Positions 4,546 to 35,948 of a stretch of 64,000 bases of DNA are shown here, in pieces. How positions within the stretch are numbered: position 1 is the stretch's first letter; each line of letters opens with the position of its first letter. The stretch covers positions 15,188 through 79,187 of the forward strand of contig JBEKBN010000004.1 of assembly GCA_050015375.1 (NCBI GenBank), given 5' to 3'. Below the pieces are notes generated by a model. That model was not told the DNA's origin. It ran no database searches and was given only the letters and a program-made list of their open reading frames with translations. This DNA comes from Minisyncoccia bacterium (GTDB taxonomy: Bacteria; Patescibacteriota; Minisyncoccia; 2-02-FULL-40-12; IGHO2-01-FULL-4-A). A program made the position numbers and the translations under genes.

Positions 4546-5781
4546 ATGAGGTTATCCCAGCTTTTTACCCGAACTCTCCGGGAAAATCCCAAAGATGAAA
4601 CTAGCGCCAACGCCCAGCTTCTTGAGCGCGGCGGGTTTGTTTACAAAAATTCCGCCGGCATCTATTCGTATTTGCCGCTTGGCTGGCGGGTTTTCCAGAA
4701 AATTGCCGGCATTATCCGCGAGGAAATGAACGCTATTGGTGGCATGGAAATGCTGATGCAAGCGATGGTTGAAAAAAAATATCTTGACGCTACTGGCCGT
4801 TGGGATGTGCCGATCGGTTTTGAGGTCAAAGGTAAAAACGAAGACAAGGCCAACTTTACTCTCGGCTGGACTCACGAGGAGGTTTTGACCGAGATCGCTT
4901 CCAAATACGTCAACTCATACAAAGACCTGCCGTTTTACGCCTATCAGATCCAGACCAAATTCCGCAATGAGCCGCGAGCCAAATCGGGAATTTTGCGCGG
5001 CAAGGAATTCACGATGAAAGATTTGTACAGTTTTCATGTTTCGGAAGACGACCTATTCCGCTATTATGAGGAAGTCAAAGGTGCTTATCACAAAATATTC
5101 AATCGCTGTGGTTTGAAGGCGTTTTATACCATTGCCGGCGGCGGCGATTTCACCATCAGCAATACCCATGAATTTCAGGTCTTGTCGCCGGTCGGCGAGG
5201 ACACGATCTTTATCTGCCAAAAATGCGGCTATGCCGAGAACAAAGACATCTCAAAATTAAAAACCGGCGTCGGCTGTCCCAAGTGTGATGGCAAAATTGT
5301 GGAAGAAAAGGCGATCGAAGTCGGCAATATTTTTCCGCTGGGCACCAAATATTCAAAGGCCTTCAATTTGCAATTCGTTGACGAGAAAGGGGAGAAGAAA
5401 TTTGTGGTCATGGGTTCCTATGGCATCGGTATCGGCCGAGTGATGGGCGCGGTCGTTGAGGTTCATCATGACGGCGCCGGGATCATCTGGCCGGAGAATG
5501 TCGCCCCGTTCAAGATTCATCTGATCGCCCTCGAGGGCGGAGAGAAAGAAGCCGATAGGATTTATAAACAATTGAGCGAGGAAGGTATTGAAGTGTTGTA
5601 TGATGACCGAACCGAAAAAACTGCCGGTGAGAAATTTGCCGATGCCGATTTGATCGGCTGTCCGATCAGAATTCTTGTCAGCAAGAAAACTCTGGCCAAT
5701 AATTCCTTTGAACTCAAAAAACGCTCTGTTGATAAGTCGGAACTTATTAACTTGTCAAAATTAATGGAAGTGGTAGGCTAA
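4546..5781 (+). CDS. proS: Prolyl-tRNA synthetase, minimal bacterial type without the INS editing domain
   Basis: Class II motif 2 FRNEPRAKSGILRGKEFTMKDLYSFH and motif 3 GSYGIGIGRVMGAVVE are present, with an anticodon-binding C-terminus. It is only 411 aa. The Cys4 cluster CQKCGY...CPKCDG sits where the insertion domain normally is. The gene is preceded by TTGCTACAAT-N6-ATG. Confidence 0.9.
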   Translation: MRLSQLFTRTLRENPKDETSANAQLLERGGFVYKNSAGIYSYLPLGWRVFQKIAGIIREEMNAIGGMEMLMQAMVEKKYLDATGRWDVPIGFEVKGKNEDKANFTLGWTHEEVLTEIASKYVNSYKDLPFYAYQIQTKFRNEPRAKSGILRGKEFTMKDLYSFHVSEDDLFRYYEEVKGAYHKIFNRCGLKAFYTIAGGGDFTISNTHEFQVLSPVGEDTIFICQKCGYAENKDISKLKTGVGCPKCDGKIVEEKAIEVGNIFPLGTKYSKAFNLQFVDEKGEKKFVVMGSYGIGIGRVMGAVVEVHHDGAGIIWPENVAPFKIHLIALEGGEKEADRIYKQLSEEGIEVLYDDRTEKTAGEKFADADLIGCPIRILVSKKTLANNSFELKKRSVDKSELINLSKLMEVVG

Positions 5782-26521: not shown

Positions 26522-27604
26522 GTGACTTCTAACGGGATGAGTAACGGAGAAAAAATATATTCGGAGGTGATCAAACCCCATTTCAGCAAACGCCGTTTGA
26601 TTTTTTATTTGATAACGGCGGCGGCGCTGATACTCGTTTTTCTAAAATTCTCGGAATTGAAACTAGTCGGCCGGATCTTCTTGACGGCGAACTTGTTCTG
26701 GTTGGGCGGCATCATTATTACCCAGATCCTCAGCTACTATTCTCTGGCGCTGAATTACCGCGATGTTTTGATGATAAAAGACCTGAAGATAAAAGCCATC
26801 AGTTTGTATCCGGTAACTTTTATTGTTCAATTCTTGAATCAAGCTATTCCTTCGGCGACGATCTCCGGCCAGATATTTTTCATCCAATATCTGAAAAAAT
26901 ACGGTTTGTCGGTCATTGAAGGCATCGGCCGAGCGATACTCGAGATCCTGACCCTGATAATCGCTTTTGGCGTTTTATTTTTCATGGCGACAATTCTTTT
27001 GGCGTTTGATGGCCAATTGGCAAGCAATTGGGTCGTGGCTTATATCATGTATATTTTCCTGTTCATAAGCGTGGCGTTGATTTTGGCATTTTTCGCTTTT
27101 CAAAAAACAAAACAAGGCAGAATATCAAAGTGGCTCATTAATTTGTTCCACCGCTTTTTTGACAAGTACGACATAAAAAATAGGACCGATTATGTTTCCC
27201 TTATACTCGACCAAATGCGCCAGAATTTGAATCTGAAGGAGCTAACAAAGAAAAAGGGCTTGCTTTTCAAAGCGGCTTTCTGGCAAGGATTGATCTTGAT
27301 CCTCAATATTCTAACTCTGTTCTTCATTTCTTACGCCATCGGTTCGAAAATTTCTTTTTTGGTGGCGTTCATCGTTTTTACTTTAATAAAATTCATTTCC
27401 CTTATCGCGTTCGTTCCCGGCGCGCTGGGCATATTCGAAGGCGGGATGACTTTGCTTTTGATCTCGTTTGGCGTTGGTGCCGGTCCGGCTTTGACCATGA
27501 CTCTTCTTTTCCGTGCTTTTACCTTCTGGATTCCCATGCCCATCGGCTGGCTCTTGTATCGCTACTTCCTTCATCGCCAGGAATTAGAGAGTCCGGAACC
27601 ATAG
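26522..27604 (+). CDS. Flippase-like/UPF0104 (lysyl-PG synthase TM-region family) membrane protein
   Basis: This is a 360-aa polytopic protein with the architecture and sequence pattern of LPG_synthase_TM-type proteins. A second in-frame ATG lies at 26537. Confidence 0.55.
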   Translation: MTSNGMSNGEKIYSEVIKPHFSKRRLIFYLITAAALILVFLKFSELKLVGRIFLTANLFWLGGIIITQILSYYSLALNYRDVLMIKDLKIKAISLYPVTFIVQFLNQAIPSATISGQIFFIQYLKKYGLSVIEGIGRAILEILTLIIAFGVLFFMATILLAFDGQLASNWVVAYIMYIFLFISVALILAFFAFQKTKQGRISKWLINLFHRFFDKYDIKNRTDYVSLILDQMRQNLNLKELTKKKGLLFKAAFWQGLILILNILTLFFISYAIGSKISFLVAFIVFTLIKFISLIAFVPGALGIFEGGMTLLLISFGVGAGPALTMTLLFRAFTFWIPMPIGWLLYRYFLHRQELESPEP

Positions 27605-27714
27605 AGTTTATTAAATATTCAATTTTGAAATTATAGTTTATTAAAATATCAATTAATAAATAAAATTGGATTGTCAGGCGAAGTTGGGCGATATAGAGTC
27701 GCACGATTTCGGTG

Positions 27715-28056
27715 ATGATGATCAGTTTTGGAAATATGATGAATTATTGGGGTGGGCCGGGATATGTGGGTAGTGCCGGAGTGATCGGTTTTGTGGTAAG
27801 TATTTTGGTCACAATACTCGTGCTCTGTATAATCTTTGCGATAGTCCGGCGGGTTTTATGGGGTTGCGGTCGTTGTCATCAATGTCGGAAGATGTGGAGA
27901 CATGGAATGCACGGCATGCATGAACATGGCATGCACACGATGAACGGCGGACCTGGCTTGGGCGGTTCGGCGCTCGATATTCTCGACCAGCGCTACGCCA
28001 AAGGCGAAATAGACAAGAATGAATACGAATCAAAGAAAAAGGATCTGATGAGCTAA
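27715..28056 (+). CDS. SHOCT-domain small membrane protein with His/Met-rich segment
   Basis: One TM is followed by CGRCHQC and HGMHGMHEHGMHTM. The C-terminal SALDILDQRYAKGEIDKNEYESKKKDL is SHOCT-like. The terminator aaacccgcc-gaaa-ggcgggttt plus T lies at 28059-28085. Confidence 0.55.
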   Translation: MMISFGNMMNYWGGPGYVGSAGVIGFVVSILVTILVLCIIFAIVRRVLWGCGRCHQCRKMWRHGMHGMHEHGMHTMNGGPGLGGSALDILDQRYAKGEIDKNEYESKKKDLMS

Positions 28057-28160: not shown

Positions 28161-28910
28161 ATGATAAAAAAGGAGGAGGAAAAATTGGAAGCAATAAGAT
28201 TGAGAAAGCTGGGTTTATCTTATTCAGAGATATTGACAAAAGTACCAGTTGCAAAGTCGTCCCTAGGGTTATGGCTTAAATCGGTTGGTCTTTCAAAGAA
28301 AATAAAATATAATCTAACAGAAAAGAAAAGACTTGCAGGATTAAGAGGAGCCCAAAAAAGACACGAACAAAGAATTTCTTTAACAAAAAAGATACTTTAT
28401 AATGCTGAAAACGAAATCAAATATATTTCTAAGAGAGAGCTATGGCTTATCGGCGTATGCTTATATTGGGCCGAAGGTTCTAAGGAGAAAGAAAGACATC
28501 CAGGATCAAATGTTCAATTTTCAAATTCCGATCCAAAAATGATTCTTCTCTTTCTTAAATGGCTCGACGAAACGTGCAAAATCCCGCAAAACATGATATA
28601 TTTTGATATATACATTCACGAAAGCCATAGGAAAAGAGTTGATTTAGTCAAAGAATTCTGGCGCAATTGTACCGGCTACCCAAAAGAACAATTTGATCAC
28701 GTATATTACAAGAAGAATAAAATAAGGACAAAAAGAATAAATATTGGTGATTCTTATTATGGGGTTGTTAAGGTAAGAGTCAGGAGAAGTTCGGCTTTTC
28801 TTAGACGTATTGCTGGATGGATAGAAGGTGTTTGCGATGTAACTTTGCCGGGTGGTGTATTTGGTAACACGCCTGCCTTTGAAGCAGGAGACACTAGGTT
28901 CGAACCCTAG
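28161..28910 (+). CDS. AT-rich HTH-domain hypothetical protein whose 3' end reads into tRNA-Gln
   Basis: The N-terminal HTH-like segment LEAIRLRKLGLSYSEILTKV is followed by a basic region and a WLIGVCLYWAEGSKEK segment of uncertain LAGLIDADG-like character. The last 21 codons lie inside the tRNA (28846 onward). An alternative TTG start at 28186 follows an AGGAGGAGG SD. Confidence 0.4.
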   Translation: MIKKEEEKLEAIRLRKLGLSYSEILTKVPVAKSSLGLWLKSVGLSKKIKYNLTEKKRLAGLRGAQKRHEQRISLTKKILYNAENEIKYISKRELWLIGVCLYWAEGSKEKERHPGSNVQFSNSDPKMILLFLKWLDETCKIPQNMIYFDIYIHESHRKRVDLVKEFWRNCTGYPKEQFDHVYYKKNKIRTKRINIGDSYYGVVKVRVRRSSAFLRRIAGWIEGVCDVTLPGGVFGNTPAFEAGDTRFEP

Positions 28911-28921
28911 CCCGGCAGCCA
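28846..28921 (+). tRNA. tRNA-Gln (anticodon UUG), CCA encoded
   Basis: The cloverleaf was read directly. Acceptor arm tgccggg pairs with cccggca. The D-arm is gtgt-atttggta-acac. The anticodon arm is cctgc-cTTTGaa-gcagg. The variable loop is agaca. The T-arm is ctagg-ttcgaac-cctag. The discriminator is G, followed by CCA. The U1:A72 pair and G73 are Gln identity elements. Confidence 0.85.
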
Positions 28922-28929
28922 ATTAGTTT

Positions 28930-29325
28930 ATGAAAAACTCTACAGGCAAACTTTCATTTATTCTAAGACCATCAACTATCACTCATGGTGGGGTTGGAGT
29001 TTTTGCATTGCATGATATCGCAAAAGATACATACATGGAATTATTTTTGAAAGATTTTCAAGAAGAATTACTTGACGAGAAAAATGTGCCGAAGGAACTG
29101 CGGGGTTACTGTTTGCATCATGAAAGCGGGAAACTCCTATGTCCGAAACTTTTTAATCGGATGGATATAGGGAATTATCTAAATCATTCAGAAAATCCGA
29201 ATTTAAGATATGAGAAAGGAAAAGGTTATTTTGCTTTGCGTGATATAAAGGCCGGAGAAGAACTATTTGCAAATTATAGACAGCTTGGCGAGCCGGAGGA
29301 TAAAAGAAGAGATTATTATAAATAA
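28930..29325 (+). CDS. SET-domain protein (putative protein-lysine methyltransferase)
   Basis: GGVGVFALHDIAKDT, NHSENPN (compare NHSCxPN) and GEELFANY (compare GEELTFDY) are present. The 131-aa gene is AT-rich and begins 9 nt after the tRNA-Gln 3' end. Confidence 0.75.
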   Translation: MKNSTGKLSFILRPSTITHGGVGVFALHDIAKDTYMELFLKDFQEELLDEKNVPKELRGYCLHHESGKLLCPKLFNRMDIGNYLNHSENPNLRYEKGKGYFALRDIKAGEELFANYRQLGEPEDKRRDYYK

Positions 29326-29471: not shown

Positions 29472-29927
29472 ATGAACAAAAGCAAAAAGAATGATGACTA
29501 TCCGCGAGCAGTGGTTCGTGAGATTGATGGCCAATTGGTATTGGATGATCCCGATGCCGTGGCGGTCATACATGCGGTAGGAAAGCACAACTGTCGCAAT
29601 ACACTGGGCTTGAATGCGGATCGCGTCCAACACTTTAAACAGCGACTGACAGATCGCGGTATGACGGCAAATCAAGCGGTAATCGTGATATTGAATGTTG
29701 ACGATGTTCACGGTGGCCCACTTGCCGATATGCTGATGCCTGGACACAACTGGCAGGAAATCCGCGATAAAGGTGAAGTTCCTTTTGCACGGGGACTTGC
29801 TATGCGTGATGGCATTCAAGAAGTACTTGGCACCTTTGACGAGAAAGCCGCCAAGAAATTGCTGGGTATGACCGGTGTGGCCGTCGTGGTTGTTGATCAC
29901 GGCGTTGCCGAAGTATTTGCAGCATAG
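29472..29927 (+). CDS. Hypothetical protein, conspicuously GC-rich relative to neighbours
   Basis: The promoter is TTGACT-17-TAATCT at about 29394-29424, with a GAGAGGAG SD. The 151-aa protein has no recognised domain. Its composition contrasts with the AT-rich genes on both sides. Confidence 0.5.
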   Translation: MNKSKKNDDYPRAVVREIDGQLVLDDPDAVAVIHAVGKHNCRNTLGLNADRVQHFKQRLTDRGMTANQAVIVILNVDDVHGGPLADMLMPGHNWQEIRDKGEVPFARGLAMRDGIQEVLGTFDEKAAKKLLGMTGVAVVVVDHGVAEVFAA

Positions 29928-30042
29928 TTGAAAGAACCCCGCGGTTATCACAACAGGCGCACGATCTACGGATACGGCGCCTTTTAATATACCAAAAATT
30001 GTTATAGACTAACTCTAATATCGTACCAAGCGGACAGCAACA

Positions 30043-30321
30043 ATGTATTTCGTCTATCTTTTAAAGTGCGGTGACGGGTCAATATATATCGGCATTACAA
30101 CCAGTGTTGAGCGGAGATTTCAGGAACATAAGTCCGGCAAAGGCGGGGCATACACCAGAGCAAAGAAAGCCGTTAAGATCTTATATTCTGAAAAATTCAG
30201 AACCAGAAGTAAAGCGTCAAAGCGGGAGGCGGAAATCAAAAATTGGCCGAGACGAGAAAAATTAGATTTAATCAAACATGGCAGATTTCAAACAACTACA
30301 AAAAATAATTTACAAAAATAA
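30043..30321 (+). CDS. GIY-YIG nuclease family protein (YhbQ/UPF0213-like)
   Basis: MYFVYLLKCGDGSIYIGITTSVERRFQEHKSGKG is a canonical GIY-YIG motif. Its 3' end overlaps the next gene by 44 nt. Confidence 0.75.
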   Translation: MYFVYLLKCGDGSIYIGITTSVERRFQEHKSGKGGAYTRAKKAVKILYSEKFRTRSKASKREAEIKNWPRREKLDLIKHGRFQTTTKNNLQK

Positions 30322-30580
30322 AGTCAAACACGGGTTTAATGTTACCGACGTTGATAGAGAATTCAATTTTATCTACGCCGAATTGGCCGAGGCGTTTCAC
30401 GCTTTCAGGAAAAAGTCACCGGAACTCGGGGAAGAAATAGCTGATGTCGTCATTTATCTTTTGGGTTTGGCAGAAATCCTCAAAATTGATTTAGGAAAAG
30501 AAATCGTGAAAAAGATGGATAAAAACAAAAAACGAGTTTACGAAAAAATTAATGGCGTGACGACGAGGGTTAAAGGTTAG
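30278..30580 (+). CDS. MazG-like nucleotide pyrophosphohydrolase domain protein
   Basis: EFNFIYAELAEAFHAFRK...LGEEIADVVIYLLGLAEI matches the all-alpha NTP-PPase (MazG/HisE-like) metal-binding EExxE/D pattern. Confidence 0.65.
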   Translation: MADFKQLQKIIYKNKVKHGFNVTDVDREFNFIYAELAEAFHAFRKKSPELGEEIADVVIYLLGLAEILKIDLGKEIVKKMDKNKKRVYEKINGVTTRVKG

Positions 30581-30602
30581 TTTTCAAATTATATTTCATG
30601 AA

Positions 30603-31115
30603 ATGGCCGGAGATGCTTACAAAATTTATAAAACTATGAACCAAGACACTTTTGAAAAAGTTTTAAAGATATCGGAGGAATATTTCAGTTCGAATACCGA
30701 TCCGAACCAGATGCCTATAAATAAAGATTCGGAGCAAAAACTTCTGTCAATTCATACGGATACGATAATTTATAAATTGGACGAAAAAGAGGAGCCAATA
30801 GCATGGGCAGTGGTAGTTCCGACAAGCACAGAGACCATGACTTCTTTTCTCGAAAAGAAGATCACCGAAAGAGAACTTCTGGACATTGCCGCAAAAGAGA
30901 AAAAATTCGATGCCTTGTATCTTTGCGCCGTTTTTGTTTTGCCCGAACATCGAAGAAAGGGATACGCAAAAGAATTATTATTGAACGCCATTGAAAAGAT
31001 TCCAAACAGTGACAAAGCGACTTTATATGCATGGATATATTCCGATGAAGGGAAAAAACTCGTTGAGGCGCTTACTAAAGAAACTGGCAGAAAAATTTTG
31101 ATAAAAAAGGGTTAG
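30603..31115 (+). CDS. GNAT-family N-acetyltransferase
   Basis: The acetyl-CoA binding motif LYLCAVFVLPEHRRKGYAKELL fits the Q/RxxGxG/A pattern. The length is 170 aa. Confidence 0.7.
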   Translation: MAGDAYKIYKTMNQDTFEKVLKISEEYFSSNTDPNQMPINKDSEQKLLSIHTDTIIYKLDEKEEPIAWAVVVPTSTETMTSFLEKKITERELLDIAAKEKKFDALYLCAVFVLPEHRRKGYAKELLLNAIEKIPNSDKATLYAWIYSDEGKKLVEALTKETGRKILIKKG

Positions 31116-34451: not shown

Positions 34452-35948
34452 ATGAAACGAACATTTTTATCATTATTCGTAATAATTACAGTCGTTGCGG
34501 GTTTTTGGGGCGGAATATTTGCGGCCAACGCCATGGTTCCGACCTTATCGCTTTCGGCATCGGGCAATGGGGACATGGTCTCGGTGACGATCTACGGCGA
34601 CGCTTACGCTAACGCGATTTTGTATTATCAAAAAGCGGGTTACGGGATGCAATCCCAATATCTTGGCACGACGAATGCCAATGGCTATTTTTCGACCACG
34701 GTTAGCACATCCGGAGACGGCATTTCTACCGGCAGTTATGTTTATGTCGTTGTCAACAATCAGCAATCATCCCAGACATTATGGCCGTATAATTACAACA
34801 ACGGCTACAATAATTACGGTTCCCAACTTTCTTTGAGTCAAACCAGCATCTCTCTCAATGCAGGCGCCAGCGCCAATGTTACCGTCTACGGTTCCGGCAG
34901 TTATTATATCTCCTCCAACACCAATTCTAACATCGCCTCGGCCAATATTAGCGGCAACAACGTCTCAATTTACGGGATAGCTTACGGCAGCGACACCATT
35001 TCAATTTGCCAGTCAGGCGGCCAATGCGCCTCGCTTTATGTTACTGTCAATTACAACGGAACGAATTACAACAATTACGGTTATAACTACAACTACAGCA
35101 ACAATTATAGTTATAACTCGCCGACTCTCAGTCAGTCAAATATCACTGTGACCACCGGCCAGCCGACCTACATCACCATCAGCGGCGGCACCCAGCCCTA
35201 CACAATGTATCCCAGTTCGCCAAATATTTTCAATTCGGTCATCGGCGGCAACACGCTCACTATTTCGGGTTTGAATAACGGATCAGGCACACTCAGCGTT
35301 TGCTCGTCGGGCGGCAGCAGTTCCGGTTGCGCGACCTTGTATGTCACAGTTGGCTACCAGAATTATAATTACGGCTACAACACCAACTATAATTCTTGCT
35401 ATAGCGCCTACTGCAACCAACTTTCTTTGAGCCAGACCAGCATCTCTCTCAATGTCGGTTCCACTACCAATATCTCGGTCAATGGCGGTTCCGGCAGTTA
35501 TTATATCTCCTCCAATACCAATTCTAACATCGCCTCGGCCAATATTAGCGGCAACAACGTCTCAATTTATGGCGTTGCTTACGGCAGCGACACCATTTCA
35601 ATTTGCCAGTCAGGCGGCCAATGCGCCTCGCTTTATGTCACCGTCAATTACAACGGAACGAATTACAATAATTACGGCTATCAAACAGCGATAACATTCA
35701 GCCAAAATAATCCGACATTATCCATCGGTCAGAACACGTCGGTTTCTATTTTTGGCGGAACCGGCAGCGGTTATTATGTTGCCTATAACTCTAATTCAAG
35801 TGGGATCCAAGCAAATATCTCGGGCAATATTTTGAACATCACCGGCGAGACCAATAGCATTGACGCCATCACAGTATGCTCGGTTTCGACCAATTGTTCG
35901 GCGCTGACGGTCAACGTCGGCTACTACAATACACCTATTGTCTATTAA
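34452..35948 (+). CDS. Secreted/cell-surface protein with four bacterial Ig-like (Big_2-like) modules and Asn/Tyr-rich linkers
   Basis: A signal/TM N-terminus is followed by repeated modules of the form SISLN...VTVYGSGS...ISGNNVSIYG.AYGSDTISICQSGGQCASLYVTV, each with one Cys pair. The linkers read NYNNYGYNYNYSNNYSYN. Confidence 0.65.
   Translation: MKRTFLSLFVIITVVAGFWGGIFAANAMVPTLSLSASGNGDMVSVTIYGDAYANAILYYQKAGYGMQSQYLGTTNANGYFSTTVSTSGDGISTGSYVYVVVNNQQSSQTLWPYNYNNGYNNYGSQLSLSQTSISLNAGASANVTVYGSGSYYISSNTNSNIASANISGNNVSIYGIAYGSDTISICQSGGQCASLYVTVNYNGTNYNNYGYNYNYSNNYSYNSPTLSQSNITVTTGQPTYITISGGTQPYTMYPSSPNIFNSVIGGNTLTISGLNNGSGTLSVCSSGGSSSGCATLYVTVGYQNYNYGYNTNYNSCYSAYCNQLSLSQTSISLNVGSTTNISVNGGSGSYYISSNTNSNIASANISGNNVSIYGVAYGSDTISICQSGGQCASLYVTVNYNGTNYNNYGYQTAITFSQNNPTLSIGQNTSVSIFGGTGSGYYVAYNSNSSGIQANISGNILNITGETNSIDAITVCSVSTNCSALTVNVGYYNTPIVY
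34824..35683 (+). repeat. Two about 260-bp near-identical direct repeats inside the surface-protein gene (34824-35086 and 35421-35683)
   Basis: The DNA is almost identical over about 260 nt, for example caactttctttgagtcaaaccagcatctctctcaatg versus caactttctttgagccagaccagcatctctctcaatg. The repeats encode two Big_2-like modules. Confidence 0.8.

Follow-up and report, generated by a model that had tools for sequence, protein, structure and literature searches.

A predicted stand-alone SET-domain methyltransferase at the head of a variable stretch behind tRNA-Gln in a Paceibacteria-type bacterium

The window analysed here, a stretch of 64,000 nt from contig JBEKBN010000004.1, carries at positions 28930..29325 of the forward strand an open reading frame (ORF) of 131 aa, ATG to TAA, that is read as an intact, stand-alone SET-domain (class V) methyltransferase. 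Judged from the sequence, this annotation is secure. It looks like an accessory gene and is the first of a lineage-variable stretch that lies directly behind a conserved tRNA-Gln anchor. As far as our searches show, its subfamily appears to be confined to Paceibacteria-type bacteria of the candidate phyla radiation (CPR), and it is uncharacterised. Tentatively, and with a confidence that falls somewhat short of even, we favour the reading that the product is a catalytically competent, S-adenosylmethionine (SAM)-dependent, cytoplasmic enzyme whose gene is co-transcribed with the tRNA and which would most likely methylate a lysine on a conserved protein of its own cell.

The SET protein and its subfamily

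The original prediction had identified a SET-domain methyltransferase from sequence motifs, and this identification is borne out by profile, motifs and fold. The Pfam SET profile (PF00856) matches the ORF with E = 9.3e-12 and 45.7 bits, the gathering score being 22.4, and the match takes in profile positions 1-104 of 105, which is far beyond chance. The match spans residues 21-116 and is the sole Pfam domain of the protein, just as SET is the sole Pfam match in all 24 of the aligned family members. Across this alignment the mean column identity is 73% and 34 columns are invariant, including G23, H28, C61, C71, N85, H86, N91, E111 and Y116. The GxG cofactor-binding motif of SET-N is represented by GGVG (residues 20-23; 28987..28998, forward strand) within HGGVGVFA (residues 19-26), where all 24 members have G23 and at least 90% of them G21. 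Similarly, NHSENPN (residues 85-91; 29182..29202, forward strand) corresponds to the NH(S/C)xxPN motif, with N85, H86 and N91 invariant, and GEELFANY (residues 109-116; 29254..29277, forward strand) to the ELxF/YxY motif with its conserved tyrosine, with G109, E111 and Y116 invariant. Both of the latter motifs, on whose alignment the original prediction had staked its case, fall into place: in residue-level alignments to solved SET proteins the NHS lies opposite NHD/NHS/NHC of Schizosaccharomyces pombe Set7, Set2 and NSD1, and in alignments to PDB sequences Y116 lies opposite the tyrosine of EELCISY in S. pombe Set7 and of ELTFNY in NSD1.

The structure prediction that had been proposed as a check gave a concordant picture. 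An AlphaFold2 model built from the 24 family members has a mean predicted local distance difference test score (pLDDT) of 82.8, with values below 50 only in the last 12 residues. The best 10-residue block is 101-110 (mean pLDDT 96), and block 111-120, which holds the remainder of GEELFANY, averages 73. When the model was compared with the PDB using Foldseek, SET proteins were returned, with vSET at the top (E = 1.1e-6) followed by PRC2/EZH2, S. pombe Set7 and SET7/9. That the C-terminal segment threads through the NHS loop as a pseudoknot is implied by these fold matches only. Searching the PDB with a profile made from the family alignment gave nothing beyond S. pombe Set7 except a spurious match to a designed repeat, and no NCBIfam model matched the SET protein or the products of the neighbouring genes. 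Two cysteines of the SET-I insert (YCL...LLCPK), C61 (nt 29110-29112) and C71 (nt 29140-29142), are invariant in 24 of 24 members, and the family lacks the pre-SET and post-SET zinc clusters despite this invariance; channel lining, a disulfide or metal binding are candidate roles for the pair.

The genome itself can be placed by the DnaX protein of the window (25307-26416), whose nearest named relatives come from Candidatus Paceibacterota, Yanofskybacteria, the Parcubacteria group and the Patescibacteria group. These relatives indicate a reduced, Paceibacteria-type CPR bacterium, in keeping with the reduced genome that had been suspected. The homologues of the SET protein form 231 clusters in a collection of 5.8 billion proteins. 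Among the 120 clusters listed, nearly all have 125-160 aa and are at least 63% identical, all are annotated with PF00856 only, and the named sources are Nomurabacteria, Kaiserbacteria and Paceibacterota. In the GTDB genome set, 13 SET loci were found in Nomurabacteria, Adlerbacteria, Kaiserbacteria, Moraniibacteriota, Parcubacteria and metagenome-assembled genomes labelled as Saccharibacteria. Identity between SET proteins across the fetched loci is 55-100%, with most values at 58-83%.

Further relatives were collected by a profile search of 1.84 billion representatives clustered at 50% identity, which returned 10 matches at E < 1e-30, 243 at E < 1e-10 and 1154 at E < 1e-3. The closest family is barely represented in this library, with three matches at E < 1e-50 among those listed, and most of the best 150 of the 1154 relatives are small, at about 110-180 aa. 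Some of the more distant relatives form the C-terminal domains of very large proteins, for example in a protein of 2321 aa from the gammaproteobacterium Lamprobacter sp. that is annotated as 'GNAT family N-acetyltransferase' (P0152), and a CPR protein of 325 aa (P0121) has two stretches matched by the mini-SET profile, the best at residues 37-161.

These numbers revise two parts of the original prediction. SET proteins had been described as rare in bacteria; with 231 clusters and 1154 representative relatives at E <= 0.001 they are not, and stand-alone SET proteins are common in prokaryotes, so that the finding of one more is by itself unsurprising. Moreover, the protein had been called eukaryote-like. 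A eukaryotic origin was considered and is unsupported, since the close relatives are all CPR proteins of a CPR-wide subfamily and eukaryotic SETs match the window protein at about 20-30% identity only. An origin from phages or defence systems was likewise rejected, as no relatives of the window SET were found on viral contigs, PADLOC gave no matches for SET or its neighbours and PHROG gave a single weak match whose function is not annotated. In the searchable literature, nothing was found that connects SET domains with CPR or Patescibacteria.

Genomic setting and expression

The gene lies right behind a tRNA gene, as had been noted: tRNA-Gln(UUG), at 28846..28921 of the forward strand (ARAGORN; Rfam tRNA 66 bits), ends 8 nt before the SET ATG. 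In front of the tRNA lies a gene of 249 aa with a helix-turn-helix (HTH) and a LAGLIDADG fold (28161..28910, forward strand), the last 65 nt of which form the 5' part of the tRNA. This LAGLIDADG/HTH family has 2120 clusters in Paceibacteria, and several of its members end in the tail LPGGVFGNTPAFEAGDTRFEP, which is translated tRNA. Further upstream, dnaX (DNA polymerase III gamma/tau; 25307..26416, forward strand; Pfam) serves as an anchor for the context. In the six lineages inspected (the window, L049, L052, L055, L056 and L057), DnaX is followed by 0-2 genes, the LAGLIDADG/HTH gene and tRNA-Gln(UUG), with a gap of at most 5 nt or an overlap between the latter two in all six. GtrA usually heads this array, and in the window and L049 it is preceded by a type IV coupling protein (T4CP)/DUF87 ATPase gene. 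The whole or part of the T4CP-GtrA-DnaX-LAGLIDADG-tRNA-Gln array is kept in Wolfebacteria, Staskawiczbacteria and the other Paceibacteria loci examined. The order from DnaX to tRNA-Gln common to the six lineages therefore indicates that the position of the tRNA is ancestral and syntenic and that it is not a recently targeted site. In the window, DnaX is followed by two inserted genes, LPG-synthase-TM (26522-27604) and SHOCT (27712-28056).

What follows the tRNA differs from lineage to lineage. In the window it is SET, then a gene for an unknown protein of 151 aa and GIY-YIG, MazG-like and GNAT genes, these last four making up the rest of the putative variable stretch (29472..31115, forward strand; Pfam). 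Elsewhere tRNA-Gln is followed by a 3-dmu-9_3-mt-like protein and OmdA (L049), an unknown gene and a tRNA_bind protein (L052), DUF6879 (L055), SDR, an HD protein and GNAT (L056), or a large serine recombinase (Resolvase/Recombinase/Zn_ribbon_recom) with an HsdM/Eco57I-type restriction-modification methylase (L057, 3418-5708), the last of these apparently an integrated element at the tRNA-Gln hot spot. The gene set of the window was not met behind tRNA-Gln in the five other lineages, though the HD and GNAT genes of L056 may or may not be related to it. Such a change of genes behind the same tRNA in every lineage is characteristic of a hot spot for accessory DNA. Pfam scans of the ORFs in 17.4-36 kb gave no integrase or recombinase, the 25-nt 3' end of tRNA-Gln, searched for an attachment (att) site with up to 3 mismatches allowed, occurs as a single copy in the window, and no direct repeats relevant to att were found in 26-36 kb. 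A classical tRNA island in the window was rejected for want of an att repeat and of an integrase in these searches. The original suggestion of a tRNA integration site holds in part, as there is a variable hot spot with a SET gene of deviant GC content at third codon positions (GC3), but the integrase and the att repeat are missing and the tRNA stands at its ancestral position. The 151-aa ORF directly after SET (29472-29927) has no match in Pfam, NCBIfam, PHROG or PADLOC; its GC content is 0.50 against 0.354 for the AT-rich SET gene and 0.380 for the GIY-YIG gene on either side, and it is preceded by a Shine-Dalgarno-like GAGGAG, among the few clear ones in the window.

The surroundings of SET were surveyed in 31 non-redundant loci, 28 of which had enough upstream sequence for a test of tRNA adjacency. 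General synteny around SET is not conserved across the 31 loci. The flanks are chromosomal, with genes for DnaX, Obg, LexA, CTP synthase, RuvA, UvrB, DnaJ and aminoacyl-tRNA synthetases of the Trp/Tyr type (class Ib) and class IIb, and such housekeeping flanks together with the lack of relatives on viral contigs indicate that the SET gene is chromosomal and not viral. Some blocks recur: the window, L005 and L041 all have dnaX ahead of tRNA-Gln and SET, and L006 and L020 have DnaJ and two aminoacyl-tRNA synthetase genes in common. A same-strand tRNA ends 8-65 nt before SET in 6 of the 28 loci, with the identities Gln (twice), Ile, Arg, Glu and His; besides that of the window, these tRNAs lie at 5318-5391 in L002, 5861-5935 in L003, 5908-5981 in L005, 5920-5992 in L012 and 5232-5305 in L013. 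Against the background tRNA density of the same loci this adjacency has P values of about 1e-4 to 5e-3, which are optimistic because the loci are not independent. Furthermore, the nearest upstream tRNA is tRNA-Gln in 7 of the 13 loci that have an upstream tRNA (P about 5e-7 for chance). Co-transcription and hot-spot insertion are both possible causes of the adjacency. The order LAGLIDADG/HTH gene, tRNA, SET is found in the window and in L002 with different tRNAs (Gln and Ile, respectively), and these are the only two of the six tRNA-SET loci with a LAGLIDADG-type gene. No integrase, att repeat or transposase was found near SET in the window or the gene-annotated SET loci, with the exception of L047, where a Phage_integrase-family gene begins about 4.3 kb downstream. 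L043 and L048, and no other loci, have a weak Peptidase_C39-like neighbour in common.

On the question of vertical descent or exchange the evidence points both ways. The SET gene has the lowest GC content (0.354) and the lowest GC3 (0.273, z = -3.5) of the 60 ORFs tabulated for the window, among which the GIY-YIG, MazG-like and GNAT genes rank third to fifth lowest in GC. Across 21 loci, the GC3 of SET averages 0.106 below that of its flanks and is the lower value in 17, and it also tracks the flanks (r = 0.65, P = 0.0015). Long vertical residence is indicated by this correlation and the remnants of synteny; patchy spread, variable context and low GC3 point to membership of an exchangeable gene pool. 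In every pair of loci with another gene in common, SET identity (57-72%) exceeds that of the neighbour (23-56%), which could reflect strong constraint, a more recent shared ancestry owing to transfer, or the two together, and for DnaX, which only three taxa share, the ranking of distances is not decisive.

In many SET homologues an extended -10 box, TGnTATAAT, stands 6-7 nt before the ATG and there is no Shine-Dalgarno motif. This leaderless architecture was ruled out as a feature specific to SET because it is found genome-wide in the window: most genes lack a Shine-Dalgarno motif (60 ORF starts), and many first-in-line genes have TAnnnT or an extended -10 box 6-8 nt before the ATG, for example at 4546, 37170 (reverse strand), 49734, 55370 and 63373 (reverse strand). 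From this pattern, leaderless mRNAs seem to be the rule in this genome. Before the ATG of the window SET neither a Shine-Dalgarno-like motif nor a -10-like box was found, only the tRNA end 8 nt upstream, and a scan for promoters and terminators around the tRNA and SET gave counts at or below shuffle expectation, with no consensus promoter-like site in the gap. From the 8-nt gap and the lack of a promoter-like site or Shine-Dalgarno-like motif we infer that tRNA-Gln and SET are likely co-transcribed.

Proposed function and competing explanations

In the reading that we favour, SET would be transcribed together with tRNA-Gln, and 3' processing of the tRNA would release a SET mRNA with an 8-nt leader. 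The protein would stay in the cytoplasm and most likely methylate a lysine on a conserved protein of its own cell, for instance one associated with the nucleoid or belonging to the translation apparatus. A cytoplasmic location is suggested by the lack of any hydrophobic segment in the SET protein (maximum 19-residue Kyte-Doolittle score 0.99) and by the conserved N-terminus, MKNxTDxFSFILKPS, which is modelled as the first strand of the fold. A lysine on one of the cell's own proteins is preferred because there are precedents of prokaryotic SETs with endogenous substrates, namely MC1-alpha for Go1-SET and Hc1 for cpnSET (PMC3980110). With a median pI of 5.0 and a net charge of about -7.6, the family is acidic and would suit basic nucleic-acid-binding substrates. 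It may be speculated that the conserved but poorly modelled C-terminal tail (L119, E121, P122, then D/E-Y-Y) closes over the cofactor or substrate like post-SET segments.

Several observations weigh against this reading. The SET family is patchy, numbering 231 clusters where the LAGLIDADG gene has 2120 and DnaX at least 8000, which argues that SET does not serve a housekeeping function, and accessory, AT-rich, tRNA-proximal genes are equally typical of interaction or conflict factors. The window protein is near neutral (pI 7.8), unlike its acidic family, and a conserved partner gene beside SET was not found across the 31 loci. For co-transcription there is only the spacing and the absence of detectable signals to go by. 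In addition, a protein substrate is not guaranteed, as BurB, a stand-alone bacterial SET of roughly 160 aa, S-methylates free methionine (PMC12542666).

An enzyme of the BurB type, a mini-SET acting on a metabolite and not on protein lysine, would agree with this use of a free amino acid and with the presence of MazG-like pyrophosphatase and GNAT genes among the neighbours in the window. Nevertheless, genes of a BurI/D/E-type pathway are absent beside SET in every annotated locus, BurB was undetected by sequence search at E <= 1 and in most loci the context of SET is unconnected with metabolism, so that a small-molecule methyltransferase appears distinctly improbable. Still more remote is a pseudo-enzyme, a SET-like module that binds without catalysing: inactive PR/SET domains exist and several PR domains are among the fold matches, but the SAM-binding and catalytic residues (G21, G23, N85, H86 and Y116) are invariant or nearly so across the family, and we give this explanation very little credence. 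More weight, though still that of an unlikely account, belongs to the proposal that SET is cargo hitch-hiking at recombination or homing hot spots linked to tRNAs, for example by co-conversion with the adjacent LAGLIDADG-type gene or in small islets, and that its cellular role is secondary or conflict-related (anti-phage or anti-defence). Such mobility would fit the same-strand tRNAs of five identities just before SET in 6 of 28 loci, the order LAGLIDADG/HTH, tRNA, SET at different tRNAs in the window and L002, the AT-richness of SET relative to its flanks in 17 of 21 loci and the large serine recombinase with a restriction-modification system at the same tRNA-Gln site in L057. In the window and the gene-annotated SET loci, however, no such machinery was found near SET except in L047, the LAGLIDADG-type gene accompanies only two of the six tRNA-SET loci, the P values of the adjacency are optimistic because the loci are not phylogenetically independent, and viral-contig relatives and PADLOC matches are lacking. 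Moreover, long vertical residence is indicated by the GC3 tracking and by synteny blocks that lineages far apart have kept (dnaX in the window, in L005 and in L041; DnaJ with aminoacyl-tRNA synthetases in L006 and L020). In a broader and quite doubtful extension, Paceibacteria would possess an undescribed, tRNA-anchored exchange system in which free-standing LAGLIDADG/HTH genes overlapping tRNAs (Gln here, Ile in L002) mark or create hot spots, short accessory genes including SET are swapped from one CPR lineage to another just 3' of the tRNA and expressed from its transcript as leaderless mRNAs, and SET modifies a protein of a partner cell or an invader and not a housekeeping target.

The original prediction had favoured a host-directed effector, delivered from an epibiont into a host cell to methylate host proteins as RomA/LegAS4 or NUE do with histones. 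The lifestyle would fit, since this is a CPR bacterium and the characterised CPR members are epibionts on host cells (bioRxiv 10.1101/2025.01.22.634366), and so would a gene that is accessory, compositionally deviant and close to a tRNA. In addition, a gene for a VirD4/TrwB-like coupling ATPase (T4CP/DUF87; 22251-24683; Pfam) lies about 4 kb upstream of SET, and a T4CP-type gene is found again 4.4 kb upstream in L009. A link to a type IV secretion system was nevertheless rejected, and the proximity is treated as coincidental, because the VirD4-like gene belongs to the conserved T4CP-GtrA-DnaX array, which is kept where tRNA-Gln is not followed by SET (L049). A survey of CPR genomes found 5713 T4CP homologues in 2918 genomes, of which 148 were near virB4, and raised exaptation as a possibility; most CPR T4CP genes are away from virB4 and may have been exapted (bioRxiv 10.1101/2025.01.22.634366). 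The SET protein itself argues against export, being a bare domain of 131 aa with neither a hydrophobic N-terminus or other Sec-type signal nor the space to house a targeting module such as a nuclear localization signal or ankyrin-type repeat, and its resemblance to LegAS4 is at the level of the fold, with no sequence similarity in the PDB search at E <= 1. SET is also more conserved than neighbouring housekeeping genes, and an effector driven by its host to diversify would seldom be so well conserved. Most known hosts of CPR bacteria are themselves bacteria and lack the eukaryotic histone tails that RomA and NUE target. Nothing beyond lifestyle and accessory status thus speaks positively for the effector, and we consider it improbable.

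Lysine methylation by SET proteins is far less studied in bacteria than in eukaryotes. A SET of 131 aa with 58-83% identity across several Paceibacteria lineages, patchy in distribution and deviant in composition, offers a tractable target that is easily expressed and has a clear assay. Its substrate would tell whether the proteins to which these ultra-small bacteria give methyl-lysine marks are those of their own nucleoid or translation apparatus, or those of their hosts.

Other features of the window and comparison with known systems

Elsewhere in the window, a direct repeat of about 200 nt with 95% identity (34889-35084 and 35486-35681) lies inside an ORF of 498 aa (34452-35948), with flanking 69-nt copies within 34823-35684 at a period of about 597 nt. 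The ORF has a weak match to T2SS-T3SS_pil_N and is probably a repeat-containing surface or pilus-associated protein. On the reverse strand, two adjoining large glycosyltransferase genes of the PMT_2/PMT family (596 and 519 aa) occupy 17452-20861, and a Bestrophin-like gene (20905-21693) adjoins the pair.

Among known systems, the closest in form is vSET (PBCV-1 A612L; PDB 3kma/1n3j), the top Foldseek match given above, which like the CPR protein consists of a bare core, about 120-130 aa long, that lacks the pre-SET and post-SET zinc clusters, and which shows a weak sequence match over the NHS...ELxxxY half. It differs in that it is the product of a giant-virus gene and methylates H3K27 of the host, whereas the CPR gene is chromosomal, and identity is about 25-34% in partial alignments. 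The best PDB sequence match is S. pombe Set7 (PDB 5h6z; E = 0.0034, residues 20-117), likewise a small stand-alone SET. However, it is eukaryotic, has a histone substrate ('novel histone methyltransferase' in the title of the PDB entry) and is roughly 25-30% identical, and no specific evolutionary link is suggested.

BurB of Burkholderia thailandensis (PDB 9l4t) is encoded within a biosynthetic gene cluster (PMC12542666), and no such cluster is found by the CPR SET gene. RomA/LegAS4 (PDB 8swi) and NUE are of greater size, have secretion signals and targeting modules, and modify eukaryotic histones (PMC3980110). The CPR protein shows none of these features, and its match to LegAS4 is one of fold only, with no relatedness detected in sequence. 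No MC1 or Hc1 homologue turned up in the window, where no search aimed at one was made. By analogy only, the proposed function is most like that of Go1-SET from Methanosarcina mazei and cpnSET from Chlamydophila pneumoniae, which act on the chromatin proteins of their own cells, MC1-alpha and Hc1 (PMC3980110).

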